From assembly GCA_963514005.1 (NCBI GenBank), contig OY740782.1, forward strand, positions 15,438,001 through 15,502,000: a stretch of 64,000 bases of DNA. The letters are read 5' to 3'. Shown here piece by piece: positions 2,816 to 56,625 of this stretch (positions within the stretch are counted from its first letter, which is position 1; the number at the start of each line of letters is the position of its first letter). The notes under the pieces were generated by a model. That model saw only the letters and a list, made by a program, of their open reading frames with translations. It made no database searches and was not told the origin of the DNA. The DNA comes from Raja brachyura (lineage: Eukaryota). Made by a program: the position numbers and the translations under genes.

Positions 2816-3315
2816 TAAGTAAGTAAGTAGTAAGTAAGTAAGTACATTTTATTTATGTAGCACATTAAAATCAACTCGCGTTGAAACAAAAGTGCTTTAC
2901 ATAGAAGAAATAATAAAATAAATAATAAAGCTTCCGTACATCCATAGAAAAATTAAAAATAAGAAAAATGACACAACACATTATAGAATTCAACATGAAC
3001 GTCCCCCCACAACAGAATCAAAATTTTCCACTGTGGGGAAAGGCATAAAAAAGTTCAGTCCTCTTCCTCTGTGAAACACACGAGGTCGGGGCCTATTTGT
3101 GGCCTCCGCAGCCAGTCCGATGTTTGCAGGTCCTCTTTGCGGCCTCTGCAGCCAGTCCGATGTTTGCGGGTCCTCTTTGCCGGAAAGCTGGAACTCCGGC
3201 GTCGAGTGAACACTCCTCAGCGGCTTGGAAAATGGCTGGAGCGGCCGCTTCCTCCCCAGAGACCGTGGCGCCCGAAAGTCCCCAGGCCGCTCTGGTTGGA
3301 GCTCTGACTCTGGCT
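2816..3315 (-). mobile_element. Non-autonomous retroposon with L2-type tail and (TTAC)n end, 5'-truncated
   Basis: Close match to 6429-6772 and 37357-38295; internal ~40 bp tandem duplication at about 3100-3180. Confidence 0.8.
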
Positions 3316-3384: not shown

Positions 3385-3545
3385 AGTTAAATGTGGCACT
3401 TGTGGCTAAAGGGATCAGGGGGTATGGAGAGAAGGCAGGTACAGGATACTGAGTTCGATGATCAGCCATGATCATATTGAATGGCGGTGCAGGCTCGAAG
3501 GGCCGAATGGCCTACTCCTGCACCTAATTTCTATGTTTCTATGTA
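3385..3545 (+). mobile_element. CR1 LINE 3' end
   Basis: gctaaagggatcagggggtatggagagaaggcagg...tttctatgtttctatg; near-identical to 60500-60665. Confidence 0.9.
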
Positions 3546-4788
3546 AATATATACAATGCATGAACCGTGCATAAAATTCATCCGACATTTTCAGAGGCTA
3601 TACAAATTCCATACGGTTCTATACAGTCTATATACATTGCTCAAATTTCACGAATCTATCCCCCACCCGTGCCACTCATGTGGCCCCCTGGCGTGGGATA
3701 CCTTCCTTTATTTTGAGGAGCGTCTCCACCCGTGCCCCCCATGTCCAGCGGAAGGATCGTGAACCCATCCTGCACCCTCTCAAAATCCTCCACATGCAAT
3801 AAGAGATCTGCATGGGTGAAAGCCCTTGTTCCAGAGGAGACCCAGGTTGGGCCAGTATGAGTCACGTGATGGCAACAGATTCAAATGATGGCACAAGCAC
3901 ATCTGCAGGCTCAACATGTATCCAGGTTAAAAAAACTTTTTGTGAGATTAGTTTGACTTCTATATCTTTGTCAATCACAGCTTGTGAAAATGTTTAATTT
4001 ATTTGTCTTCCACTTAAGGGACTGTCCCACTTAGGTGACCTTATTGGCGAGTTCACGAGACTTTGCGTCGCCACATGGTCGCCACATGGTCGTAGGTGGT
4101 CTCTGGTGAGTCTCCTTCATGATCGAGAGTAGTTCCCGCATAGTGGTAACTAGTCGCGGCTTCAGAAATGGTCCCGTAAAATTTATTCAACATGCTGAAA
4201 ACGTTTCTGCGACCAAAAATTGATCGGCATGGAGAAAATCGATACATAGTCGTGCGTTTGGTCGTAGGAGGTCATAGTGGGTCGCCATGTTATCGTAGTT
4301 AATCGTAGGTAGTCGTGATAGTCGTAGGTAGTGTTAATTAATCGCCTTTGCTCGTTTCAATGGCTCGTTATGAAAAAAAAGGTATGTGAACAGCAGCACG
4401 AGATGCACTTTCACTCCAGTGCGCGGTCAGTGCATCAGAGGGTGAGTCATGGCTCTGAAGAGAAGGCAACTCTGCAGGGAAGGGCACAACCCTCAACAAA
4501 ACCCACCAGGCAGGTGTCGCTGACCCAGGAGGAGATGCAACAAGAGGAGAAAGTCCAGGAGGAGGAATCCCAGGAGGAGGATGTTGTACTTCGTGGTCCG
4601 GTATCTGTTATACCATTGTTCTGACTCTGGAATTACCACAAGTACACGTGTTTAGGGGTTTGTAGCTGAGCATAAATCAAAACTCTGTTTATTTCACTGC
4701 CATCTGGAACCAGACTTCCCTGCCCACATATGTCATTCCCATATATACATGTTGCTACGCAGGCAAACAGAGTAGTCCATGTGATATA

Positions 4789-5619
4789 GGCAAGGCAAGG
4801 CAAGGTAAGTTTATTTATATAGCACCATTCATACAAGCTGCAATTCATAGTGCTTTACAAATGAAACAAGAGAATAACATAGTTTAAAAACATTGCAGAA
4901 CCACAATACAACACAGGACAACAGAATAGCCAATAAGCCAATTGCATGAATAGTAAAACAAAATCACTAAAACATTAAGGCGATTTTAAAAGCACATAAA
5001 AGGGTTAAAACTAGAAGATTAAAATTACCCGCATGTTGGGTCATGAAAAAGCTACATCAAACAACAGTGTCTTTAGGCCTGACTTAAATATGGTTACTGT
5101 CTGTGCACACCTCAGGTGTTCAGGGAGCTTGTTCCACAGGTGTGGAGCATAGAAACTGAACGCTGCTTCAGCCCTTTTTGTTCTGACCCTGGGAACATGG
5201 AGTAAACCTGTCCCCGAAGACCTGAGGAGTCTAGGTGCCTCATAAACAACAAGTAAGTCAGAGATGTATTTTGGACCCAGACCATTCAGAGCCTTGTATG
5301 CCAGTAACAGAATTTTAAAATCTATCCTTTTACACACAGGGAGCCAGTGCAAAGATTTAAGGACAGGTGTAATGTGATCCATTTTCTTGGTGTTGGTCAA
5401 GACTCTGGCAGCGGCATTCTGGATAAGCTGCAGTTGTTTAATTGATTTTTTACTGAGACCTGTAAAGATATTATTACAATAATCTAACCTACTGAAGATA
5501 TATGCATGAACAAGTTTTTCAGTGTCTTCTTTGGACAGAAATCCCTTGATTCTTGCAATGTTTTTTAGATGGTAGTAGGCAGATTTGGTAATGGTCTTTA
5601 TATGGCTGTTAAAATTCAA
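4789..5619 (-). mobile_element. L2-clade LINE 3' part with uninterrupted ORF2 C-terminus (ORF 5041-5619)
   Basis: LVHAYIFSRLDYCN..LQLIQNAAARVLT..HITPVLKSLHWLPV..RIDFKILLL..LWNKLP..FKSGLKTLLF; tail tgtaaagcact..ataaataaac(ttgcc)n. Confidence 0.93.
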
Positions 5620-6228
5620 TAAAGTATAATAAAGTAGTCCTTGCAATATCACAACAGATGAAGCCCTGGAGAATTTACAGGAGGAGACCAGGTAGGTAGG
5701 TCATGTCCACACCACTACCCCATCCCAGACTGGCCAATTTAAAGCCAGCAATAGAGGCACTGCTGCTGTAGCATCAGCCACCAATGCCTCAATTGTAGTG
5801 AGGAAGGGCTGGAAGAAGGTTTGCCCTTAAACGTTCACCAGCGAGCAGGAAGGAGACCTGGTTGAATGGTACCAATACAACCCTCTCCTGTACGATAACG
5901 ACAACGAAAACTACAGGATGAGAATGAACAAGACAAAATTACTCCAGGAAAATGCCATGGAGTTCCCTGACTGCACCTGTAAGTACCTGCTTTTTTTTAA
6001 ACTTCAGTAGCTTTATCATTCTCTTGCAGTCAGGCAGGCAATTTGCAAAAGGTTCCTTTGGATTTAAAGTTCATAATTTTTTTCTGCAATACATCTTCCA
6101 TTCTCTTGCAAGCAGGCAATTACCACAGGATATATTTCTTTCAAAGATCCTACCTTTCTTAAATCTTCAGTACCTCCTCCATTCTCTTTGCCAAGCAGGC
6201 AATCAGGTTTTTATGAAGAAGAAGGGTG

Positions 6229-6326
6229 GGTCTGAAGAAGGGTCTCGACCCGAAACGTCGCCTATCTCCTTCGCTCCTTAGATGCTGCTGCACCCGCTGA
6301 GTTTCTCCAGCCTTTTGTGTAACCCC
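6229..6326 (+). mobile_element. Penelope-like terminal fragment, young subfamily, hammerhead-like core at 6232-6259
   Basis: CTGAAGAAGGGTCTCGACCCGAAACGTC then gcctatctccttcgctccttagatgctg; near-identical at 8190, 10852(-), 20036 and 39536. Confidence 0.8.
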
Positions 6327-6428
6327 AGGTTTTTATGATTTTTAACTGCCTCATTGTTGTTTGTCCACAGCACCTCTCCCATTCTCTTGCAACTTTCACA
6401 GGTTATGTTACTTTTAAAGTTCCAACTT

Positions 6429-6772
6429 TAAGTAAGTAAGTACATTTTATTTATATAGCACGTTGTTGAAACCAAAGTGCTTTACATAGAACAAAAATAT
6501 TTAAGTTTCCGTACATCCATAGAAAACATTTAAAAAGAGAAAAATGACACAACACATTATAGAATTCAACATGAATGTCCCCCCACAACAGAATCACAAA
6601 TTTTCCACTGTGGGGAAAGGCATCAGAAAGTTTCAGTCCTCTTCCTCTGTGATCACCCGAGGTCGGGGCCTATTTGTGGCCTCCGCAGCCAGTCCGATGT
6701 TTTCTGGCCCTCTTACCGGGAAGATGGAACTCCGGAATCGGGTGAACACTCCTCAGCGGCTTGGAAATGTCG
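6429..6772 (-). mobile_element. (TTAC)n-tailed non-autonomous retroposon, truncated
   Basis: Matches 2816-3230 and 37400-37760. Confidence 0.8.
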
Positions 6773-7829
6773 GGGATGGCCCCTTCCCCCCCGTATTTCC
6801 GCGAACTTTGTCTGCAATACCTCTTGTATTCTCTTGCAGGCCGGCATTTCATAGGTATTTTTTTCTTTTGGACTGATGTCCAGCTCTGCCAGTGGGTAAA
6901 GAGCCAGCGAACGATATATGACCAGCTGACTACCAGGGGGACAAAGTCGGGGTCTGCTGGAACTAGAACTGGAGAGGCAGATCGGAACGATCTGATCAGG
7001 ACTGTAAGTACCTTGTGTAAAAATTCTGTATATTCATCTTCTCATTCATCAATCCTTCCATCCATGCATCATTGCACTTTTGACATGGTCATTTATGTTG
7101 CAGCTCATGCAACGGGCAAAAGACGTGGGACAAATAATACTGGATGCCCCCGACACAAAGCCACCAATGGATGAATACATCCAGAGCTTAACCAGATTTA
7201 TCATCTCTTTGCTTCCATGTGCACCATCTACGAATATGCTCAGATTCACCAGAGGGCTTCTGACATATGTCATGGATTCCTGCGAACAGGTCAATATGTC
7301 ATTTCATTTGTCTTGTCATTCTGTCAAGGTTTGGCTGCAGTATTTGGCCTTAATATTTTTTTTTTAGATGAAATAATCACAATGATTTCATGTGGGTTGT
7401 AGTCTGAGCAGCCGATGCCACAAGTGGGGCAACAACATATGGCACCACGTCAGATGCCTTCGATGGAGCAACAACTCCAGTATGTTGAACAGGTATCAAA
7501 ATATAGCAAAACGCTTTGATAGTTGCAATTCTTTGCCACACAACTTCTGAGTGAGATATTTTAATTTTATTGGAGTTCCACTTACATATGATTCTGTGTT
7601 TCAAAAACAGTAATTGATGGAACAAGCACAACACATGCGAATGGGGGCACAACCAAATCTGCAGGCTAACCAGGTATACAATTTAGAAGAAAAAAAAATT
7701 GTGAGTTTAGTTTGGCCTTTAATTATTTGTCAATCACAGCTTGTTAAGATTTTTTAATTTACCTTCCTTCTAATCATAATTTTTTTTTGTGTTTCAAAAA
7801 TAGTCCATGATGGGACCACAAAGACATAA

Positions 7830-8286
7830 ACTCGGTCCTGGGCCTCCTCCACGGCCAGAGTGAGCAACACCCGCAAGTTGGAGGAACAGCACCTCATATT
7901 CCGGTTGGGGAGCCTGCATCCTCTGGGCTTAAACATTGAATTTTCTCAATTCTGTTAACCCTGGCTGTCTCCTCCCCTTCCCACCTCTCCCTCAGACCTC
8001 GGGCCCTGGCATTCCTTCTCTCTCTATCTCTCCCCCACCCAAGTCGCACTAGCTTCTCATTTTCACACTACAAACAGCTTACAATGGCCTGTTTCCTTTA
8101 TCATCGATACTTTTTTGCATATCTTTCATTCATTGTTCTTTATCTCTCCACATCACCGTCTATATCTCTCGTTTCTCTGATCCCTAGCCAGTCTGAAGAA
8201 GGGTCTCGACCCGAAACGTCGCCTATCTCCTTCGCTCCTGAGATGCTGCTGCACCCGCTGAGTTTCTCCAGCCTTTTGTGTACCCC
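7830..8286 (+). mobile_element. Penelope-like element 3' end (end of GIY-YIG ORF plus terminal repeat)
   Basis: VLGLLH..RKLEEQHLIFRLGSLHPLGLNIEFS; hammerhead-like core at 8193-8220. Confidence 0.85.
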
Positions 8287-8807
8287 CTAAACTTTTTATC
8301 AGTTTAGATTGAATTCAAATCTCTGTCGATCGATCGCAGCTCTTGAGGGTCTTTATTGTTTTTGCCTTTCAATTGATCTTGATTTTTTTTTTCACAGACA
8401 GCCTGTTGTGACACCACAACAGACATACATAGATACACGGCCTGCAAGATCTGTCTTCTGATTACTCAGAATACAATTTACATGAAAGACATCGACAGGC
8501 ACCAGTAGCACAAGGGGATAACACCATGGACCAGGGGCAAAATTGAGTTTGTCTTTCATGTTGATGTTTATATTAATGTTGACTGTTCGGAAACGTTATT
8601 TGTTTGAAGTTCTATAGATATATTTTGAAATTTTAAAATATTTTTAGGATTATTAAAATTACTTGTAAAAAATGCTTGTTTATAAGAATTTTGTATGTTT
8701 AATTACCGATAAAGGACATTCCTGACATTTTAACCTCAAATTGATGTATGGTTATCACTTTTTTTCATAGTAGTCCCTCATGTCATCACTTATATTTCAT
8801 TTCTCAT

Positions 8808-9345
8808 ACATTTTGATCATTGAAACAAACACAAAAGCAAGGAAGGAAGGCACTGTATTTACAGTTTTACCGTACACATTTACTTTGATGAAGAAAACAG
8901 ACACAAGCACTTCAAATGCACTGCATTTAAAAGGATTTTATTTTTATACATCTCGATAAATCTAACACTAAAACAAGCAGTGCACAGAATTTAAAAGAAC
9001 ATTTTCATACATTTTGATAAATCTAACACTAAAACAAGCAATACACTGAATTTCACAGAATATATTTATACACATTTTTATACATTTTGATAAGTCTAAC
9101 ACAAGCAAGCAATATACTGAATTTAAAAGAACATAATGATTATACATTTTGAGAAATCTGACACTAACACAAGCAATACACTGAATTCAAATGGACTTTT
9201 TCATACATTTTGATGAATCTAAAAAGAAGACACAAGCCATGAACTGTTTTTACGAGAATATTATTTTTTAATTTTTTGATTAATCTAAACAGTAAAACGC
9301 AATCAAAGATTTTAACAATAAAACAAGCAATGCAATGTTTTTAAA
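8808..9345. repeat. AT-rich tandem array, ~60 bp unit, ~8 copies, inside the Harbinger element
   Basis: Repeating atacattttgataaatctaacactaaaacaagcaatacactgaatttaaaagaac; shorter version at 11800-11945. Confidence 0.85.
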
Positions 9346-9359
9346 ATCTCCCAATCAAC

Positions 9360-9575
9360 CTTTACCATCAAAATTAGCCCTTTCCCAATTTAGGATTTTA
9401 ATCTGTCTTATCTCGTTCCATAACTATTTTTAAAACTAAAATAATTATAGTCACTGATCCCGAAGTGCTCCCCCAGTTTCATTTTCTTAAGAGAAAATCC
9501 AGCGTAGCCCCTTCTCTAGCAGGGCCATCCACATAATGCTTCAGAAATATTTCATGCACACATGGCTCCGAATGA
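9360..9575 (-). mobile_element. CR1 ORF2 endonuclease-region fragment
   Basis: Minus strand reads FLKHYVDGPAREGATLDFLL..GEHFGISDYN..LNWERANFDG with indels. Confidence 0.7.
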
Positions 9576-9721
9576 TTTTAAGCAACACCCTGCAAGCCAT
9601 TTTATAGTGAAATAACATATAAACATGACATCATTTTTTTAGGTGATCTTTTGAGCTGTAGCCAGTCGTAGCTTGTCGCAGTTTGCTTTCTGTGATCGTG
9701 GGTGTTGTCGTCTGTAAGTCC

Positions 9722-10270
9722 AGTCCTGGCCCGTTTGCCCTCAACTCATACTCGCAGCTCATACTCGTACTCATACACGAGGTCGTAGGAGATCTTTGTA
9801 TCTCTCCTTCATGCTCGAGAGTAGTCCCCGTGTACTCGAGGCCTCAGCTAGATCGCGGCGTATTTTTCAACATGTTTAAAAATGCCCGTGAGTAAAAAAA
9901 GGTCGCCATGGAAAAAAACTATTATTTTTCTACTTGAAGGTTTAGTCGTAGTAGGTCGGCATGTTAGTCGTAGGTAATCAAGGGTAGTCAAAGGTAGTCA
10001 AAGGTAGTCATAGATAGTTTTCATCATAGTCGGAAGGGAGGTCGAGGGAGATTGAAGGAGGTCGTCTTCATTCTTCACTATTCGGTGTCCGAGTTTTCCA
10101 AAGTTAGTCGTAGCTAGTCGTAGCTAGTCGGAGCTGGTCTTCAACATATTCGAAGGAGGTCGGAGGAGGTCTTCCACATAGTCGAAGGAGGTCTTCAACA
10201 TGACATTTTTTCAAACTCTCTGAAACTCTTCGAAACTCGCCAATTAGGTCGCCCAAGTGGGACAGCCCCT
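9722..10270 (-). mobile_element. Harbinger-family MITE, one end truncated
   Basis: Ends GTGGGACAGCCCCT followed by TAA; inverted homolog of 10381-10708. Confidence 0.7.
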
Positions 10271-10380
10271 TAAGTCATGGATAGTCGTTACAGGTCTTCT
10301 ACATACTCATAGGATGCCAAATCTTTGGTGATTAAACAAGACCATGACAGTCACCTGTACTCGCAAAACAAGTCGCCTAA

Positions 10381-10824
10381 AGGGGCTGTCCCACTGCGGC
10401 GACCAAATTGACGAATTTAGAAGAGTTTAGGAGAGTTTGAAAAAGTGTCATGTTGAAGACCTCCTTGGACTATGTGGAAGACCTCCTTCAATCTCCTTCG
10501 ACTATGTTGAAGACCAGCTTCGACTAGCTACGACTAGCTTCGGGAAAATTGGACACCGAATAGTGGAGAGTGAAGACGACCTCCTTCGATCTCCCTCGAC
10601 CTCTCTTTGACTATGATGAAGATTATCTACGACTACCTTTGACTACTTCGAGCCGAGGGCAAACGGGTCAGAACTCGCGGTTTAGGTCGCCCAAGTGGGA
10701 CAGCCCCTTTTATCGCCGATGCACTCGTGAAAATTGGAGACTCAATAGTGGGGACTGAAGACGGCCACCTTCGGCTTACAGGCGACAATACCCACGAATA
10801 GGTCGCCGCAATGGGACAGTCCCT
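10381..10824 (+). mobile_element. Harbinger-family composite MITE inserted into the right TIR of the large element
   Basis: TAA|AGGGGCTGTCCCAC...TGGGACAGTCCCT|TAA; extra internal terminus ending at 10708. Confidence 0.8.
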
Positions 10825-12132
10825 TAAGTGGGACAGGCCCTTTAATCTTTAGGGTACACAAAAGGCTGGAGAAACTCAGCGGGTGCAGCAGTATCTAAGG
10901 AGCGAAGGAGATAGGCAACGTTTCGGGCCGAAACCCTTCTTCAGACTCCTTTAACCTTTATATGTGTCTGTGTTACAAAAAAAGTCCATGATGAGACCAC
11001 CACAACTGATTCAAATGATAGCACAGCAACATCTGCAGGCTCAACAGGTATCGTATTCTAATAATACTTTTTTTGAGTTTAGTCGGACTTTAAATTATTT
11101 GTCAATCACAGCTTGTGAGGATTTTTTATTGTATTTGCCTTCCACTTAATCTTGATATGTCTTTTTTTCAGAAGCATTGCAGCCTGCAAGGTCTAACAGC
11201 TTATCTTCACTTGCTGCTGCCTACACAGACTACCATAGCCTTGATACACCCCACACAGGCACAAGTGATACCAGGGGGTAACCACATGGACCAAGGGGGG
11301 ACTTGCGTTGGTCTTTGATGTGAATAGTTATGTTAATGTTAATTGTTAATGATGTTGACCCTTTTGTACTAATTTTCTATTTTGATGTTTGAAGTTTAAA
11401 TCATGAAGTTTGAAGTTGATTTAAGTTTATTTAAAAGCTTATTTAAAGAATCTCCTTGTGGTATGGGAGGTACAATGTTAATGTATAATTTAATCTGAAT
11501 ACAAAAAGAAAATATTTTTGTGTGCCGTCCACTGTTTTTTGTTCTTTCTAATCTAATAATAATTCTAACTTTTATTGTTGTTAAAGTGATGATTCTTTAT
11601 AGATTTGTTATGGAAAATATTACATTTTATCTGGTTATAATACTTATTATGTACTATAGTATGTTGCCATATAAAACCTTTGTATGTTTCAATATCAATA
11701 AAGGAAATGCCAGATATTGTTACCACAAATTGATGTGTGAAGATATTTTTTTCAGAGTAGTTATCTCATGGCATCACTTATATCTCATATATTTCTTATT
11801 TCATATATTTAGATCAATAAAACAAACACAAGCAAAGCACTGCATTTAAAAGCAGATTATTTTAATATATTTTGATGAATAAAACAAACACAGACACAAG
11901 CGGTGCACGGCATTGAAAAGTAAATTATTTTTATATATTTTGATCACTATGGCGTGCACAGCCTAAATTTGCAGGACAACTTGTTCTATTTGATCTTATT
12001 TATGTGGCTGAAGTTTACAGGAATTTAGGAGAATGAGATACGATCCATATGAAACGTATACAGCATTTTGACCAAGGAGAATCGTGGAAATAAAGTGATA
12101 ACAGGCATTTTTGTTCTATTGGAATGTGTTGT

Positions 12133-12423
12133 ATGGTGGTGCAGTGGTGGAGTTGCTGCCTTACTGCACCAGAGACCGGCATTGATCCAGACTACAGCGT
12201 TTGCACCTTCTCCCCGAGTCCTGCGTGGGTTTTCCCTGGGTGTAGTTTCCTCCCACATGCCAAAGACATACAGGTTTGTAGGGTAATAGGCTTTGGTAAC
12301 ATTGTAAATTGTCCCAAGTGTGTTTCAGGCCGTGTTAATGTGCGGGGATCGCTGGTCAGTTAGACTCGGAGGGCCGAAGGGCCTGTCTCTGCAATGTATC
12401 TCAAAACTAAACTGAAGTAAACT
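12133..12423 (+). mobile_element. HE1/V-SINE-like tRNA-derived SINE
   Basis: tRNA-like head, V-domain-like core (tgcgtgggttttccc..gtttcctcccaca..ccaaagac), CR1-like tail gggccgaagggcctgt, (AAACT)n end. Confidence 0.85.
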
Positions 12424-19629: not shown

Positions 19630-20600
19630 TGTAGGAAGGAACTAGATGCTGGTTTACACCGAAGACAGACACAAGATGCTGGAATAAAGCAACGGGACTG
19701 GCAGCACCTCTGGAGAGAAGGAACGGTTGACGTTTTGGGTCGAGACCCTTCTTCAGACTGAGCGTCAGGGGAGAGGGATTTACAGAGATAAGAAAGTTGA
19801 AGCAATCAAAAGAGATGAAGGTCAACTAAAATATAGAATAAACCATTGTTGGCTAGGAGATGGTGACAACAAAGCAAACAGAGATGAAATGTAATCAGGG
19901 GGAACGTCAGACAGTCAGATGAGGAGTTAAAGAAGGAACTGCAGATGTTGGAGAATCGAGGGTTACACAAAAAGCTGGAGAAACTCAGCGGGTGCAGCAG
20001 CATCTAAGGAGCGAAGGAGATAGGCGACGATCAGTCTGAAGAAGGGTCGAGACCCGAAACGTCGCCTATCTCCTTCGCTCCTTAGATGCTGCTGCACCCG
20101 CTGAGTTTCTCCAGCTTTTTGTGTAACAGTCAGATGAGAAGGTTGACTGAACTTTGGTTCCTTCCCTCACAGTGGGGAACTTTGGTGCTGCTGTGGGGAT
20201 GTTTGTGTTGTGAGATACTGTGTTCAGTGTTCTGTGGTTTTTTAATTTTTTTTATTTTTTGTATGACTGTAAGGGAAAAATAATTTTGTTGTCTCTTCAT
20301 TGAAGACAATGACAATAAATTAAATCAAATCAAATCAAGTCAAGACTGGTCGGGGAACTGGAAAGGAGGAGGGACGGAGAGACAGGAAAAGCATGGGTAA
20401 CCTGAAGTTAGAGATGTCAATGTTCATACCGCTGGGATATGAGCTACCCAAGCAAAATATGAGGTGCTGTTCCTCCAATTTGTGCTGGGCCTCACTCTGA
20501 CAGTGGAGGAGGTCCAGGACAGAAAGGTCAGTGTGGGAATGGGGGGGACGTTGAAGTGTTGAGCTACCGGGAGATTAGGTAGGTCTGTATCCCCCAAGCT
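19630..20600 (-). mobile_element. Penelope-like 3' fragment with nested palindromic Penelope repeat (19925-20127) and hairpin-core retroposon (20130-20343)
   Basis: Minus strand LPVAQHFN..LSVLDLLHC..KLEEQHLIFCLG; terminal repeat at 19630-19770. Confidence 0.8.
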
Positions 20601-20935: not shown

Positions 20936-21282
20936 AGGGCCTGTCCCACTGTATGAGGTAATTCCCGAGTTTTCACCCGATTCGAACTTGGAGAATGTCT
21001 TTAGCGGGTCCGTAGGAGTACGTGGATGTCTCTAGCGGCTCGTAATGCTAACGGTAGGTACTCGGGGAAATCCGGTAAACTCGTGACGTTTTTTCAACAC
21101 TGTGAAAAATGTCCACGAGTTAAAAAATACTCGTGATTAAAAAAATGGTTACTTTTTACTTGTACGAGCCGCTACGAGACATCCACGAACTCCTACGGAC
21201 CCGCTACGGACATTCTCCGAGTTCGAATCAGGGGAAAACTCGGGAGAACTCTTGAATTACCTCGTACAGTGGGACAGGCCCT
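20936..21282. mobile_element. Palindromic Harbinger-family MITE
   Basis: AGGGCCTGTCCCACTGTA..TACAGTGGGACAGGCCCT with long internal inverted arms; flanks TAA/TTA. Confidence 0.85.
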
Positions 21283-21550: not shown

Positions 21551-21766
21551 AGGGCCTGTTCCACTTACGCGACTTTTACTGCCGGCACCCGTCAAAGGTC
21601 GCCGAAATTTTCAACGTTGAAAATTCAGCAGCGACCAGAAAGATGATACGACTCTTTGGAGACTTCTCACGACCATGCAGGCGACCCCGGGCGACATGTT
21701 GCGGGTGACCTCTCACGACCGTAGGAGACCTCTCACAACCGTGGTCGCGATAGTGGGACAGGTCCT
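21551..21766. mobile_element. Harbinger-family MITE, internally deleted
   Basis: TTA|AGGGCCTGTTCCACT...AGTGGGACAGGTCCT. Confidence 0.75.
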
Positions 21767-24859: not shown

Positions 24860-25755
24860 TTCGCAACGGAGACAGAGTCCCCATAATGCTTACCTTTCAC
24901 CCCATCAGCCGTCGCATTCAACATATAATCCGCCGACATTTTTGCCACCTCCAACGTGATCCAAACACTAATCACACCTTCCCATCCCCACCTCTTTCCG
25001 CCTTCCGCAGAGACAGCTGCCTCCGCGACTACCTGGTTGACTCATCCCTTCCCACCCTTCCCACCCCCTCCCCAGGAGATGCAACCCCTGTACCTATACC
25101 TCCTCCCTTGACTCTGTCCAGGGACCCTGACAGTCCTTTCAGATAGAGGTTCACTTGAAGCTCCTCTAACCTCATCTACTGTATCCGTTGTTCAAGATAT
25201 GGACTCTTATACATCAGCAAGAGCAAACATAGACTGGGCGATTGCTTCACCCAACACCTTTGTTCAGTTTGCCTTAACCGACTTGATCTCCCGGTTACTA
25301 AACACTCCCATTCTCCTTCCCATTCCCACACAGACCTTTCTGTCCTCGGTCTCCTCCATTTCAGAGTGAAGCTAAACGCAAATTGGAGGAACATGCTCTC
25401 ATATTTCGCTTGGGCAGCTTACAGCCCAGTGGTATGATAGGGATTTCTCTAACTTCAAATAACTCCTGCATTCCCTCTCTCTCTCTCTATCCCTCCCCAA
25501 CCCAAGTCACACCAGCTTCTCGTTTTCATCAGACAAACAGCCGACAACGGCCTGTTTCCTTTATCATCGTTACTTTTTTGCATATCTTTCATTCATTGTT
25601 CTTTATCACTCCACATCATCATCTATATCTCTCGTTTCCCTTATCCCTAACCAATATCTGAAGAAGGGTCTTGACCTAAAACGTCACACATTCCTCTTTC
25701 CAGATATGCTGCCTGTCCCACTGAGTTACTCTAGGAATTTGTGTCTATCTTCGGA
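24860..25755 (+). mobile_element. Penelope-like retroelement 3' part: GIY-YIG endonuclease remnant plus terminal repeat
   Basis: RVPIMLTFHP..IIRRHFCHLQRDP..FPSPPLSAFRRD..SSNLIYCIRCSRYGLLYI..RLGDCFTQHL..EEHALIFRLGSLQPSGM, with frameshifts. Confidence 0.9.
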
Positions 25756-34589: not shown

Positions 34590-34712
34590 CACTGCCACCG
34601 AGGCTCCACCATCGGCGAGGCTCCACCGCCACCAAGGCTCCGCAACCACCGAGGCTCCACCGCCACAGAGACTCCTCCACCACTGAGGCTCCACAACCAC
34701 TGAGACTCCATT
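34590..34712. repeat. Short tandem array (GAGGCTCCACCGCCACC-like, ~6 units)
   Basis: Directly visible repeats. Confidence 0.8.
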
Positions 34713-37356: not shown

Positions 37357-37418
<62 letters not shown>

Positions 37419-38295
37419 TACATTTTATTTATATAACACGTTTAAATCAACTCACGTTGAAACCAAAGTGCTTTACATAGAGAAAAAAAAGTAAGTTTCC
37501 GTACATCCATAGAAAATTTAAAAAAGAGAAGAATGACACAACACATTATAGAATTCAACATGAACGTCCCCCCACAACAGAATCAAAATTTTCCACTGTG
37601 GGGAAAGACATCAGAAAGTTTCAGTCCTCTTCTCTGTGATCACCCGAGGTAGGGGCCTATTTGTGGCCTCTGGAGTCAGTCCGATGTTTTCACGCCCTCT
37701 TGCCGGGAAGACGGAACTCTGGCGTCGGGTGAACGTTCCTCAGCGGCTTGGAAATGTCTGGAGCGGCCGCTGCCTCCCAGGAGACCGCGGCACCCAAAGT
37801 CCTCAGGCAGCGCTGGCTGGAGCTCCGACTCTGCCGATCTCGAATCCCCGGCTCCGTGGTGTTTTAAATCCAGGGCCGCCCGCGGCTGGACGTCCGCACC
37901 CACAGCTCCTCGGATGTTGGAGTCGGCGGTCTCAGCACTTCGGAGCTTTCCGCACGGTGACCCGGCAAGGCATCGCCCGCTCCGTGTTGGTGTCCCAGTG
38001 CTGGGTCACCGCTGAAGCTGTTGTCCCGGAAACGCCGCTCCAGTCCGATGGTAGGTTTTGAGGAAGGGGCGAAGAAGCAGCTCGGAGAGAAGCCGCCTCT
38101 CCGACCAGGCAGGGACTAGGAAATAAAGTTTCCCTCTTCCCCTCCCCCCACCCACCACATAAAACAAGACCTCCAACAAACATTTTGTTGTATTGGACTA
38201 AAAATAAAAATAAAAAAGGGTGAAAGGACGGACTGCAGGCACAGCAGCCATACGCAACGGCGCCCCACTCCTGCAGTCCGCCATCTTTAGTGAAC
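37357..38295 (-). mobile_element. Near full-length non-autonomous retroposon: AAGATGGCGG head, GC-rich body, hairpin core, L2-type tail, long (TTAC)n
   Basis: About 15 AGTA units at 37357-37418; head reads aaagatggcggactgcagg on the minus strand; no tRNA head. Confidence 0.8.
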
Positions 38296-39512: not shown

Positions 39513-40317
39513 CCTGTATATAGAGTATATAGAGTCTGAAGAAGGGTCTCGACCTGAAACGTTGCCTATCTCCTTCGCTCCTTAGATGCTGCTACACCCG
39601 CTGAGTTTCTCCAGCTTTTTGTGTACCCCTATAGAGTTAATGAGGCTGGGGGAAAGCAATTGCAAGCAAAGTTCACATTTGATGGAATAATGCAATGTTA
39701 AACTATATGGACCTTGGATAGGTGTCTCTCGTGGCAGGTTGCACATTCTAGTTCCCCATGTTATACAAAGATTCAGAAGTACTGGAAGAGGCTGCAAAGG
39801 GATTGTAAGGATTGCAATGGAGAAGAGTCATTGAAACTAGCAGAAATTCTGATCATTCTGTTGGTGCAATCCTAACAATGTAAGTAAAAACTGACAAAAA
39901 ATTGGAGCGTGCGAGGTCATTCAGCCACTTGAGCCTGAGCCATTGTTCAAAGGGATAATGCCTCTTCTTCTTCAAATACCATTTTTCCATGTAAGGAGGA
40001 ACTGCAGGTGCTGGTTTAAACACAAGATAGACACGAATAGCTGGAGTAACTCAGCGGGACAGGCAGCATCTCTGGAGAGAAGGAATGGGTGACGTTTTGG
40101 GTCGAGACCCTTCTTCCCATTTTTCTGTTCTCTCCCCTCATCACAATACCTTTAAAATACTGAAGACTCTCAATCTTTCCTATGGGCAAAGGCTAGTAAA
40201 CACTACATCCTCCAAATAAGCTCTGAACTACATGGACTATTATTGTTATTACTGCACTATTACTGTTTGTTTGTGTGTTATGTGTATGAATGTATGCGTG
40301 CATGTGTATACACACAC

Positions 40318-40383: not shown

Positions 40384-41080
40384 CTAGACTAAGTGGGACC
40401 CTCAAGCCTAATGTGCTGGCAGCTCACTCACGGCTGGTGGGCTGGCAGTTGACTCACGGCTATTCCTTGAAATTCCATTTCAAGCAGGGTGCAAGGCCAC
40501 AAAATTAAAGTGCAGTTTCCTAGCACTTCATGCAGAATGCAGAGCCACCAAACACAAGTGCAGTTTAATGCCACTTCAAGCAGGGTGCAAGGCCACCAAA
40601 TTAAGTGCAGTTTCATACCACTTCAGGCAGGGTGCAAGACAACCACATTCAAGTGCAGTTTCATACCATTTCAAGCAGGGTGCAAGGCCACCATATTCAA
40701 ATGCAGTTTCATACCATTTCACCACATAAAACACCACATAAACACCACACTCACAGTTTAGTAGAAATGTGTTCAGTTTTATTCACAGCTCAGACTGAGA
40801 GACGTGACCCTCTCACTCCCCCATTTTGCAGAGACTGACTGAGGCACTCAACACTTCCGGGTTTTATAGTCCCTCTGGAAGGGGTGTGGCCTTCAGGAGA
40901 GAATCTCAACATTTTTCAAACACTAATAACTCTTTTATTTTTAATCGATGGGAAAATCCTCTTGTCCTGCACAGCGGAGTAAGATGGCCAAAAATCATAG
41001 CCGTGAGCGGCAGCGTTTTTTCTAAAATCAATATACAGAACAACAGGAAGTGGTCAAGATCAGACTTTTAGCAATATATA
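40384..41080 (-). mobile_element. Non-autonomous Helitron inserted in an (AT)n/(CA)n microsatellite
   Basis: Minus strand starts TATATTGCTAAAAGTC and ends GGGTCCCACTTAGTCTAG|T, like 22843-24132; half of the terminal hairpin is missing. Confidence 0.75.
40478..40722. repeat. ~39-40 bp tandem array (~6 units) within the Helitron
   Basis: tttcaagcagggtgcaaggccaccaaatt(c)aagtgcagtttcatacca repeats. Confidence 0.9.
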
Positions 41081-48366: not shown

Positions 48367-48609
48367 AGGGCCTGTCCCACTTGGCGATTTTTTTCGGCGA
48401 CTGCCGGCGTCATTGACTGACATATCACGTCATCGAAAAAGTGACGCAGCGTGATGCGACGTGACGTGGCAGTGACGCAGCGTGATGCAGCGTGATGACG
48501 TGTGCAGTGTTTCTTCAAGTGTCGCAAATGTTGAAATCTTTCGACGACCCTGATACATCAGCCAATGACGCCGGCAGTCGCCAAAACAAATGGCCGTGGG
48601 GCAGGCCCT
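48367..48609. mobile_element. Palindromic Harbinger-family MITE
   Basis: TAA|AGGGCCTGTCCCAC...GTGGGGCAGGCCCT|TAA. Confidence 0.88.
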
Positions 48610-52584: not shown

Positions 52585-53785
52585 TGTTTAGTTCACTTTA
52601 GTTCAGATTAGTTTATTGTCACATGTACCGAGGTACAGTGAAAAGCTTTTGTTGTGTGCTAACCAGTCAGCAGAAAGACAATACATGATTACAATCGATC
52701 CATTTACAATGTATAGGCACATGATAAGGGAATAACATTTAGTGCAATGTAAACCCAGCAAAGATCGATCATGGATAGTCCGAGGGTCACCAATGAGGTA
52801 GATAGTAGTTCAGCGCTGCTTTCTGGTTGTGGTAGGATGATTCAGTTGCTTGTAAACAGCTGGGACGAAACTGTCCCTAAATCTGGAGGTGTGCGTTTTC
52901 ACAATTCTATAAATGTTGCCTGATGCGAGAGGGGATAAGAGGGAGTTGCCAGGGCGAGACCCATCCTTGATTATGCTGCTGGCCTTGCCGGGGCAGCATG
53001 AGGTATGAATGGGGTCAATGGAAGGCGGGTGTGAATTGTGTGATTGTTTGGGCTGCGTCCACAGTTTACTGCGGTCTTGGATGGAGCCGTTTCCAAACAA
53101 GCTGTGATGCATCCCAATAAAATGCTTTCTATGGTGCATCTGAAGGATTGGTGAGAGTTGTAGGGGACATGCCAAACCTCCTGAGCCGCCTAAAGGGCTT
53201 GTACCACTTAGCCGATTTTTTAGGCGACTGCCAGTGACTGTCTTAGTCGTAGCAAGCAGGTCGCCAAAAAAACTGGTCCCCCTCCGACAATGTCTACTAC
53301 AAGCTCCAACAACCTACTACCTAATCGACGTCAAGCTACCGACAACCGGCGACCCATTAGGACGTCCACCTACGACCATACCTATGACAACCTACGATCA
53401 TACAGGCGATGATCACACAGGCGACACAAGCTACGACCCTGTCGGCGACAACTGAAGACAACCGAAGACAATTCAGTCGCCGGTATCTGTCGCCGGTTGA
53501 CGTAGGTTGACGTAGGTTCATCGCCAATGGAATTCACTGCTCAGCACCGGCGACAACCTACATCAAGCTACACTCATTGGCATCAACACACTGTCGCCAA
53601 AATGTTAAAAATCCAGCGGCGACCAGAAAGACGCTACGACTCTTTGGGCGACTGGGGAGACTACTCACGACCATACAGGCGACACCCCACCGACCATGAG
53701 ACGACAGCCTAGTCAACTGTAGTCGCCTAAAAAATAGCTTAAGTGGGCCAAGCGCTTAAGGAAGTGGGGGTGTTGGTGTGTTAGA
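52585..53785 (-). mobile_element. Rex1-like LINE 3' part interrupted by a MITE
   Basis: CPGKASSIIKDGSRPGNSLLSPLASG..TSRFRDSFVPA. Confidence 0.85.
53194..53756. mobile_element. Harbinger-family MITE
   Basis: TAA|AGGGCTTGTACCACTTAG...TTAAGTGGGCCAAGCGCT|TAA; many cgac/gtcg subterminal motifs. Confidence 0.85.
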
Positions 53786-55691: not shown

Positions 55692-56625
55692 TGGGCCTGT
55701 CCTACTTTGGTGACTTTTTAGGCGACTGCAGGAGACTATGCAGTTGTCATATGGTCGCCACATGTACGCGGGTGGTTGCCGGGGAGTCGGCTTCATGGTC
55801 GTGAGGAGTTCCCGCATTCTGGGAACTAGTCGCAGCATCCTTATGGAACATGTTGAAAAATTGGCGGCGACCAGAATGAAATTGGCGGCGACCATGGAGA
55901 GTAGCGAGAATTCTCGTGCCGTCGGTGGGTCGCCAGGAGGTCCTAGTGGATTTCCAGGACGTTAATGGTTCTCGTAGGTTCTCGAAGGTTGTAGCCGGTG
56001 CTGACCGGTGAATTTCGTTGGCTCATTGGGTAAAAAAAAGGTAAGCAGTAGTTTTCAGAACCAAGGATAACTGACTGGTAATGTTAAATGTCCGCCGAGC
56101 TTCACAGCCGTGTATCTCTGGCTTCTTCAAAGTTGTCTCCACTCCTTCTCCCCCCTCTTTTAAAGGACTTACCGTACACTGTGCTTTATCCATCTTAATT
56201 ACAGCGCCAACCTTCCTGTTCATCGCGGTGTCTGTCTGGATCACATTGGCTTTGCACTATGGGAATTTCACTCAGACAGCGCTCCCCNNNNNNNNNNNNN
56301 NNNNNNNNNNNNNNNNNNNNNNNNNNNNNNNNNNNNNNNNNNNNNNNNNNNNNNNNNNNNNNNNNNNNNNNNNNNNNNNNNNNNNNNNNNNNNNNNNNNN
56401 NNNNNNNNNNNNNNNNNNNNNNNNNNNNNNNNNNNNNNNNNNNNNNNNNNNNNNNNNNNNNNNNNNNNNNNNNNNNNNNNNNNNTGCGCGTGTGCGCATG
56501 CGCGTGTGTGTGTGTGTGTTCCACTCTGACTGTCGCCGTTCCCTTTGCCGTTTTTTCAGGCAACTGCTGGCAACTTGACAGTCGCCGGCTGTCACCTGAA
56601 AAATCGTCCAAGTGGGACAGGCCCA
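55692..56625. mobile_element. Harbinger-family non-autonomous element spanning an assembly gap
   Basis: TGGGCCTGTCCTACTT...AAGTGGGACAGGCCCA termini. Confidence 0.7.
56288..56484. other. Assembly gap (N run)
   Basis: 197 N. Confidence 1.

Follow-up and report, generated by a model that had tools for sequence, protein, structure and literature searches.

Nested PIF/Harbinger-type elements and Tourist-like MITEs at a locus of the skate Raja brachyura

Tourist-like MITEs are known to form multimers, for which the primary paper is reportedly that of Jiang and Wessler from 2001. In maize and rice, Castaway, Gaijin and Ditto are nested in other MITEs or in their own family via independent insertions, and over 10% of the 6,600 MITEs of rice sit in multimers, as stated in the accessible text of PMC5172404. 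PIF/Harbinger transposons also have an extended target preference, of 9 bp in plants and 15 bp in vertebrates (PMC2836001, in part). Both an extended target preference and the self-insertion of MITEs have thus been described before, in these two sources. In Medicago, MtPH-M-2-IIa combines two related PIF/Harbinger elements, an ancient copy having been hit by later nested insertions, and we found the same at the locus studied here; a sister subfamily of MtPH-M-2-IIa holds ~60-bp tandem repeats (PMC2213677). TIR-targeted insertion, in contrast, is not among the features described in the available parts of that paper. Harbingers have been reported absent from elephant shark (PMC9179366), but both whale shark and grey reef shark have them listed (PMC8455134, PMC12498223), again in the portions of these sources that we could consult.

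We analysed a window of 64 kb from Raja brachyura, in which an element, here called X, lies within an older relic and carries further insertions of its own. The borders of X are as follows:

4017 to 10841, plus strand: element X, non-autonomous and of PIF/Harbinger type, with TIRs starting AGGG and a TTA/TTA duplication
4017 to 4356, plus strand: left TIR of X with its subterminal region, showing 65.8% identity with the left end of another element, at 55692
10271 to 10380, plus strand: right subterminal remnant of X, ending GTCGCC plus TAA (TSD 10378-10380), with 31/42 nt matching the subterminal repeat 10116-10157
10825 to 10844, plus strand: second copy of TAA (10825-10827), the outermost 14 bp of the right TIR of X (10828-10841) and second copy of TTA (10842-10844)

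X is 6.8 kb long, and the gene inside it is a broken Myb/SANT-like (MADF) gene. As the earlier note on this DNA had proposed, excising 4017-10841 regenerates CTTCCAC-TTA-ATCTT, with TTA present at both borders. The left TIR and the restored right TIR are identical at 38/48 nt, and the left TIR itself contains CCAC-TTA-G (TTA at 4031). TIRs of the group start AGGG, with similarity spanning about 26-48 nt; one element outside the locus starts with T at both ends. The six locus termini reached TIR-profile scores of 32.5-37.8, inflated because the profile was made from those same matches, while 10 Markov-simulated windows gave 0-3 matches above 12 each. A chance origin of these termini is excluded.

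The duplication was exact at four of the seven outer TIR pairs in the window, had one mismatch at two and was lacking at one. Kolobok and piggyBac elements make a 4-bp TTAA duplication. We rejected such a reading for X: TTAA does flank 4018-10269, yet no empty site is restored, and both M (the MITE described below) and the elements outside the locus have 3-bp TWA flanks. X shares with PIF/Harbinger elements in general a 3-bp TWA duplication, TIRs below 60 bp starting with A, and a Myb/SANT-like ORF (accessible text of PMC4482050). In the superfamily at large, TIRs mostly stay below 60 bp and their first base is A or G. It differs from autonomous members in having no detected DDE transposase among selected frames: Pfam gave no such family in 13 + 14 window frames (of 87 + 22 listed), so that membership of the superfamily rests on TIR, TSD and MADF. 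Rfam gave 0 matches across the window at the gathering threshold. X is classed only as a PIF/Harbinger-like non-autonomous derivative, and the anatomy of the locus is that of non-autonomous PIF/Harbinger-type elements plus Tourist-like MITEs.

The interior of X holds the gene, a repeat region and several later inserts, listed here with one tail just outside X:

4359 to 8546, plus strand: broken multi-exon MADF (Myb/SANT-like) gene, whose blocks are matched in order by relatives P0001 and P0029
4788 to 5627, minus strand: insert in MADF intron 1 with a 219-aa open frame (5041-5700, minus); borders approximate
6217 to 6325, plus strand: SINE/LINE-like tail insert with a 13-bp direct repeat (6204-6216, 6326-6338)
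6429 to 6792, plus strand: dispersed-repeat insert, 87% to 37407-37778 and 77% to 2831-3257
7816 to 8287, plus strand: retroelement-like insert with the same SINE/LINE-like tail at its end, 71.6% to 25326-25744
8785 to 9350, no strand assigned: 61-bp tandem repeat region 3' of the MADF gene (TRF 8940-9222, period 61)
10852 to 10948, minus strand: SINE/LINE-like tail, 7 bp right of the TSD of X, 95.7% to the copy at 6230

Coding blocks of the MADF gene lie at ~4359-4600, 5660-5977, 6872-6967, 7104-7289, 7403-7492, 7611-7673, 7803-7815 and ~8433-8546; the second bears two in-frame stops and the seventh is split by the insert at 7816-8287. Pfam family PF10545 matched the half-domain exon with E=3.1e-4 (21.5 bits, slightly below the cut-off of 22, which 6/7 full-length MADF relatives passed). 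The closest named relatives of the protein are skate proteins. A profile-free HMMER scan with the 50-aa MADF exon returned 22 matches, and a search for this exon among longer proteins gave three candidates, none significant. The intron 1 insert, with 0 Pfam families matched, is presumably a LINE-type 3' fragment. The tail at 6217-6325 is 98.9% to the copy at 8191-8284, and that at 10852-10948 has a candidate 5-bp flanking repeat, CTTTA.

On both sides of X lie the remains of an older element:

3873 to 4016, plus strand: left piece of the host relic, comprising the 3' part of a Gln-rich exon and the 5' part of an intron of a paralogous MADF gene
10949 to 11945, plus strand: right piece of the host relic, comprising the remainder of the intron, the next exon (10986-11048), the last exon and the 3' region

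The left piece ends with CTTCCAC plus TTA (TSD 4014-4016), and, with the SINE-like tail at 10852-10948 left out, the intron resumes collinearly past X. Between host units 3873-4016 and 11003-11148, identity amounts to 81.9% (118/144 ungapped columns; 0/100 shuffles reach the score). The intact CTTCCAC-TTA-ATCTT unit cited by the earlier note is indeed present, at corrected coordinates (11139-11153 rather than 11141-11152). We considered whether ATCTT to the right of X might belong to the SINE tail and rejected this, as other tail copies diverge past the tail end and the 5-bp repeat brackets the insert. The left piece is 74.6% to the inner region 7629-7770 and was matched by relative P0001 in tblastn (E=4e-5); the right piece is 64-72% to inner 7586-7799, 8291-8689 and 8547-8957; the 61-bp tandem repeat region is likewise common to X and the relic (11799-11944). 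An element within its own family had been claimed. The nesting itself is confirmed, but with 64-82% identity, a start at ~3873 and no TIR end in the window, the host proves to be a diverged paralogue, better called a related family than the same family. A TIR-profile scan of the window found no TIR that could serve as the relic's end, and blastx of 3540-3872, 8601-9700 and 11946-12400 against a set of 30 proteins gave no match; the relic is therefore not visibly longer, and no second gene was seen.

The right end of X was in turn the site of smaller insertions:

10381 to 10824, minus strand: MITE M, 444 bp, with a TAA/TAA duplication, at positions 15-17 of the right TIR of X
9696 to 10270, plus strand: Y', second copy of the MITE family, whose right TIR is the terminus at 10270, followed by TAA (10271-10273)

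Excision of 10381-10824, with TAA on both sides, regenerates the right TIR, and the minus-strand target reads GTCCCAC-TTA-GGCGAC, in agreement with the earlier note. That M sits inside its own TIR does not follow: the TIRs of M carry TGC at positions 15-17, without TWA, and M occupies the TIR of its host element X. The outer TIRs of M match at 23/26 nt, an internal duplication (10725-10773 and 10540-10588) is 84% conserved, and no frame above 71 aa overlaps M. We also found a right-facing fourth terminus at 10708, within M, which had been overlooked and is identical to the terminus at 10270 over 26/26 nt. The terminus at 10270 followed by TAA had been recognized as a third one, and is best read, from sequence similarity, as the surviving end of a second, inverted copy of M's family. 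Y' is 90.4% identical to the inverse of M (245/271 ungapped columns), with further blocks of 21/23 and 22/26, and its segment 9776-10008 is homologous, in the same orientation, to the left end 4083-4332 (73.8%). A left TIR and TSD of Y' were searched for and not found. M is a short, non-coding element with TIRs and a TWA duplication, as expected of a Tourist-like MITE; Y' lacks a left TIR. Two copies of this family, 90% identical, lie at the locus; other short elements of the window belong to other subfamilies. Unlike in the Tourist multimers, the target here is the TIR and subterminal end of a long, MADF-coding vertebrate relative, and a TIR variant holds the preferred site.

The order of events is not unique, because the left TIR and TSD of Y' were not found and the left TIR of X fits both right ends equally well (39/48 nt with 10270; 38/48 with 10841). 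The MADF element proper could have been 4017-10270, inserted at TAA in the subterminal region of a related element, its left end and the outer right end later moving jointly into the relic and giving the TTA duplication. Another composite of this type would then be the MITE, with its own inner terminus at 10708. The slightly closer match of the left TIR to 10270 over 35 nt (31/35, against 29/35 for 10841), the missing left end of Y' and the twofold occurrence of an inner right end, ~115 bp and an outer right end (10270/10841, 10708/10824) speak for this composite transposition. We nevertheless consider it unlikely: segment 9776-10008 is a MITE-like left-end copy in the same orientation, Y' shares 90% identity with a MITE that has TIRs at both ends, and at TIR positions 15-17 the left TIRs match the outer right ends (TTA/TTA; TGC/TGC) and not the inner ones (TTG). 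The two spacers are moreover unrelated (120/300 shuffles reach the score), a result that also leaves a built-in double-TIR family architecture unsupported.

Repeats are plentiful here and an N gap occurs once in the window (56288-56484), so that an assembly artefact could also be suspected. We regard it as extremely improbable, as 3600-12200 is free of N, the junctions give exact targets, and the repeated parts are 74-90% alike and not identical.

To describe the target, we used 14 half-sites overall from 16 termini (two dropped for want of a TWA flank), of which nine were held out as lying outside the locus, in the five other TIR-paired elements of the window, a tiny sample of mixed subfamilies. 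The extended preference suggested earlier found some support, in sites too few for a target logo: C adjoined TWA in 5/9 held-out half-sites against a background of 0.171 (p=0.01), and in 9/14 overall (p=1e-4). Held-out two-sided sites had C on at least one side in 4/4 cases (p=0.011), and across two-sided sites the form C-TWA-G was present on both flanks in 2/6 and on at least one in 6/6. CCAC-TTA specifically was found in 0/9 held-out half-sites and is rejected as a family consensus. A likeness of target to TIR drew modest post hoc support from CGCC, the other half of the TIR motif, which precedes TWA in 2/9 held-out half-sites (p about 0.001; background for CCAC or CGCC before TWA 0.0054), and the corresponding similarity score fades from p=0.007 over 4 nt to p=0.06 over 7 nt.

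Zebrafish Harbinger3_DR is likewise a vertebrate Harbinger with a sequence preference beyond the TSD, but its 15-bp palindrome centred on CWG is far stricter than the loose C-TWA-G bias found here (accessible text of PMC3016246). The NuwaII group of PHIS transposons has a conserved C-TNA-G target and, like X, a Myb/SANT ORF, according to the parts of PMC4482050 at hand; its TIRs mostly start GG, in contrast to AGGG here under a symmetric 3-bp TSD parse, and here the middle base is W and the C/G flanks are a bias (9/14) and not conserved. For mPing in yeast, a hand count in the site table of PMC2836001 (supplement 3) gave C/G beside the TSD in 11/42 half-sites (one duplicate row dropped), a mild bias and hence weak support for a common C-TWA-G rule. 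A maize PIF consensus was absent among the matches listed in our literature search, and its letters are not relied on here. The TIR core was absent from three supplements of PMC4482050, and among the matches listed in full-text searches with four 12-nt TIR words, titles and abstracts were on other subjects.

Free sites of this kind are concentrated in family ends, which hold 8/21 free CCAC/CGCC-TWA sites against 3.1% of all TWA sites, a descriptive figure as the motifs derive from the TIR. Within the X backbone there are 166 free TWA sites; the single CTWAG among them lies in the left TIR and is the counterpart of M's target. A weak C-TWA-G bias alone, however, leaves unexplained why two MITEs both landed in the final 125 bp of a backbone of 4 kb.

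Could the family be steered to its own ends? The earlier note had pictured it as piling into itself. At least eight insertions of this element group lie in the 64-kb window; family DNA, which holds 13.2% of TWA sites, took 3/8 events (p=0.08) and family ends took 2/8 (p=0.024), both counts being subject to ascertainment bias, as the locus was chosen for being nested. None of the five other paired elements was nested, and 11 flanks of 200 bp yielded one 20-bp match (E=0.03). The claim of piling is not shown by these counts. A true self-targeting would have the transpososome guided to family ends by a long, TIR-core-like target consensus or by MADF binding to resident subterminal motifs, and favoured by selection since host genes are spared or copy number limited. 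Three, possibly four, junctions of family DNA with family DNA at the locus are in line with it, as are the CGCC-TWA half-sites, the density of GGCGAC (10.3 per kb in family ends, 0.28 elsewhere) and the report that the Harbinger3_DR ORF1 protein binds its own TIRs (PMC2836001, in part). The unnested elements and the lack of CCAC at held-out half-sites count against it, and TTA occupies TIR positions 15-17 in only 5/16 termini, the MITE family's own TIRs being without it. X would not necessarily be immobilised either, because the TIR insertion creates a new TWA-flanked end at 10824. We hold self-targeting to be very unlikely.

Local hopping, in which one MITE copy arose from the other by reinsertion at short range, or a chance pile-up in neutral, repeat-rich DNA singled out by the earlier note, would fit two inverted copies of one family 110 bp apart, the insertion density of the window and the non-significant nesting. 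However, mPing, the best-studied relative, is reported to lack local transposition (accessible text of PMC7584900), Y' and M show 10% divergence and reciprocal indels, so that, as they now stand, neither is copied directly from the other, and the C bias at held-out sites would be left unexplained. This account is not a likely one either.

The nest is confirmed as real, and its kind is already known. We favour as the probable explanation an ordinary multi-step PIF/Harbinger-type nest, in which an extended target preference of C-TWA-G type brings about self-nesting as a by-product, and not through a dedicated strategy. X was first cut and pasted into an intronic TTA of a relic that is older, belongs to a related element and has no TIRs, as the restored empty site shows. 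M then entered the last 125 bp of the right end of X at the TTA of the TIR, where excision restores the target; Y', a copy of the same MITE family in opposite orientation, presumably entered this stretch at GAC-TTA of a subterminal repeat, its left end probably being lost afterwards. The transposase may have been supplied in trans, favouring TWA with a 5' C and a 3' G, perhaps within more C-rich flanks. Self-nesting would arise because family TIRs and GGCGAC/TAGTCG-rich subterminal repeats happen to hold C-TWA-G-type sites, and under so weak a bias finding none of the five other members nested is as expected.

It is quite unlikely, in our judgement, that the extended target consensus is matched by the CCAC-TTA-GGCG core that some TIRs of this skate-type Harbinger-like clade carry, with relatives repeatedly inserting at TIR positions 15-17 genome-wide and building double-ended composites (10270/10841, 10708/10824). 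The available portions of PMC10288884, PMC12595863 and PMC5738225 hold nothing on TIR-targeted nesting, and the phrase of insertion into an element's own TIR was in none among the matches listed in the literature. If this reading were true, one motif would serve both target choice and end recognition, and each insertion would not destroy the host's end but swap it for a new, TWA-flanked one; double-ended composites could then transpose as single units and give rise to new MITE families. A genome-wide preference for the TIR core would thereby account, at the sequence level, for the self-insertion of MITEs and open a route to composite ends. As it stands, the locus is a clean example of known behaviour, that of nested PIF/Harbinger-type elements and MITE multimers, and it documents MADF-coding Harbinger-like elements in skate.

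Cut-and-paste insertions with TWA duplications lie nested at 3873-11945, together with a MADF gene. The large element X, whose TIRs start with AGGG, is flanked by TTA/TTA at 4017 and 10841 and has CTTCCAC-TTA-ATCTT as its empty site, the same sequence as an intact intron unit (11139-11153). The 444-bp MITE M is flanked by TAA/TAA at 10381 and 10824, and deleting it rebuilds the right TIR of X. A third terminus, at 10270, is directly followed by TAA. These observations of the earlier note all held; it had overlooked a fourth right-facing terminus at 10708, within M, identical to 10270 over 26 nt. A retroelement-like tail is inserted 7 bp right of X's TSD; we considered ATCTT as part of it and rejected this on checking, as ATCTT is intron. 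Mis-assembly of the locus is unlikely, because it contains no N and its repeats are diverged, not identical. The nest is confirmed with corrections, and its interpretation in terms of target sites is partly supported.

Scanning the whole window for the 14-nt terminus (≤2 mismatches) gave 15 termini, 6 of them within the locus, and a profile scan contributed two more, 53756 and a degenerate one at 1861. The 64 kb hold 8 or more insertions of this TIR group, and the five outside the locus share the TIR core.

Host relic, and family members outside the locus
3873-4016, host relic, left piece; the two pieces together form the 3' half of a MADF-gene paralogue
10845-11945, host relic, right piece
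20936-21282, TIR-paired element, other subfamily
21551-21766, TIR-paired element, other subfamily
48367-48609, TIR-paired element, other subfamily
53194-53756, TIR-paired element, other subfamily
55692-56625, TIR-paired element, other subfamily
1861, orphan degenerate end, other subfamily

Two of these elements are merely 269 bp apart (21282/21551). TSDs differ by one base at 20933-20935/21283-21285 (TAA/TTA) and at 55689-55691/56626-56628 (ATA/TTA), mutation being the simplest cause; the TAA/TTA flanks of 20936-21282 are inverse complements, as are those of 4017 and 10270. Element 55692-56625 contains a 197-base N gap (56288-56484) adjoining a CG/TG-rich repeat.

Some 340 bp in from the left TIR of X begins a multi-exon gene whose second coding block matches half of the MADF domain (PF10545, E=3.1e-4, 21.5 bits for a cut-off of 22). 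Among 1.84 billion representative proteins scanned, 22 matched the MADF exon. The best match, P0001, follows six coding blocks in order from 4484 to 7790 (52-66% identity), the last coding block is covered by P0029, and the MADF cut-off is passed by 6 of 7 relatives. Ten of the 12 relatives tabulated carry NCBI names of the skates Leucoraja erinacea and Amblyraja radiata; a skate is therefore the probable source of the window, and since there are several loci per species, the gene probably belongs to a multi-copy family. Stretches resembling the MADF exon occur seven times in P0002 (1674 aa) and five times in P0015 (1030 aa), i.e. in a tandem multi-domain form. X's own gene has two in-frame stops in its second block, is broken up by four retroelement-like or dispersed repeats and, judged from its sequence, is dead. 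PIF/Harbinger elements are described as having TWA duplications, short TIRs with A as first base and an ORF of Myb/SANT-like type (PMC4482050). X has all three, for which we call it a PIF/Harbinger-like non-autonomous derivative, but differs in its lack of a detected transposase (none in 27 selected window frames scanned with Pfam).

The claim that X sits inside its own family needs narrowing: the host is related, being collinear with X's exons 6-8 and 3' region, but at 64-82% identity it is a relic of a related subfamily. The profile scan found no TIR for it within the window, and it does not visibly extend beyond its two pieces. The Gln/Met/Pro-rich tail of the MADF gene consists of repeated 63-90 bp exon-plus-intron units (7403-7815, 3873-3917, 10986-11048), in whose introns CCAC-TTA recurs (at 7582, at 11146 and at 4014, where X inserted). 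Both element (8785-9350) and relic (11773-11944) have a tandem repeat of 61 bp on the 3' side of the gene; ~60-bp repeats are known from a Medicago PIF/Harbinger subfamily (PMC2213677).

Other repeats include a ~95-bp SINE/LINE-like tail with more than 30 copies in the window (e.g. 6230-6324, 8191-8285, 10852-10947, 20033-20127, 39534-39629), an inverted pair of which lies at 19960-20127. Copies inside and beside X are 96-99% alike and therefore younger than the transposon nest. There are also two tandem arrays, one purine- and C-rich with period 17/51 (34595-34710), which could encode a repetitive peptide, and one with period 48 (40471-40721).

M was thought to lie inside its own TIR; its TIRs lack TWA, so that it sits in the TIR of X. 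Upstream of it, Y' (9696-10270) aligns with inverted M at 90.4% identity (271 ungapped columns), with two further blocks in common, and its segment 9776-10008 is a left-end homologue in the same orientation (73.8%). By its sequence, Y' is laid out like a MITE whose left TIR is gone, and the following 10271-10380 resembles the family subterminal repeat (31/42 nt). In the simplest history, two copies of one MITE family would have entered X's last 125 bp in opposite orientations. We think it unlikely that what moved was instead a composite, bounded by the left end of X and an outer right end of foreign origin: X's left TIR does fit 10270 (39/48 nt) about as well as the restored 10841 (38/48 nt), and the left TSD of Y' was not found, but at TIR positions 15-17 each left TIR matches its outer partner. 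Linked mPing copies are reported to join rearrangements via single termini (PMC7584900), a possible cause of end loss in Y'. Within 10709-10824, M has a 97-bp extra piece that is absent from Y'; in it are a TIR matching 10270 at all of 26 nt and a 49-bp copy of 10540-10588.

To the claim of an extended, TIR-like target preference we applied a held-out set of 9 of the 10 flanks of the five other paired elements, with 4,635 window TWA half-sites as background; 21766 (no TWA flank) and the orphan end were dropped, and 55692 was kept despite its ATA flank. CCAC itself failed (0/9), but C at -1 was found in 5/9 (background 0.171, p=0.01), and in 9/14 with the locus included (10708 and 21766 dropped). 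CGCC, which forms the remaining half of the TIR motif, gave a modest signal (2/9; CCAC-or-CGCC background 0.0054, p=0.001, chosen post hoc). Similarity to TIR halves had p=0.007 at 4 nt and p=0.06 at 7 nt. The family is not shown to pile into itself: none of the five other elements is nested, 11 flanks of 200 bp yielding one 20-bp match (E=0.03). Of the TWA sites, 13.2% lie in family-derived DNA and 3.1% in family ends; 3/8 events are nested (p=0.08) and 2/8 lie in family ends (p=0.024), both uncorrected for the locus being picked for nesting. The sole CTWAG among 166 free TWA sites of the X backbone lies in the left TIR, as the twin of M's site, which speaks for the target sequence as the cause of M's location. 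TTA occupies TIR positions 15-17 in 5/16 termini, and GGCGAC density is 10.3 per kb in family ends vs 0.28 elsewhere.

Target preference beyond the TSD is a stated hallmark of the PIF/Harbinger superfamily, whose Harbinger-type elements require ORF1 and transposase jointly, with ORF1 binding the TIRs (PMC2836001); mPing excision depends on TWA flanks (PMC4561436). Comparable cases are the strict extended preference of Harbinger3_DR (PMC3016246), the C|TNA|G target of NuwaII (PMC4482050), MITE multimers with frequent self-insertion in rice and maize (PMC5172404) and a Medicago composite formed by two related PIF/Harbinger elements (PMC2213677). PIF-Harbinger elements are already recorded from shark genomes (PMC8455134, PMC12498223). 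In open-licence full text, covered mostly at listing level, we found no account of X's TIR family, nor of insertion aimed at an element's own TIR core.

Nothing here supports a safe-harbour or self-limiting strategy. A bolder reading, in which the TIR core is targeted throughout the genome and mobile double-ended composites are built in this way, seems improbable. M in the TIR would provide another TWA-flanked end (10824) and so need not have immobilised X. We rather favour a target bias of C-TWA-G type, possibly with C-rich extensions, which motifs in TIR variants (TTA at 15-17) and GGCGAC-bearing subterminal repeats would satisfy; relatives would for this reason probably hit family ends at a higher rate than random TWA sites.
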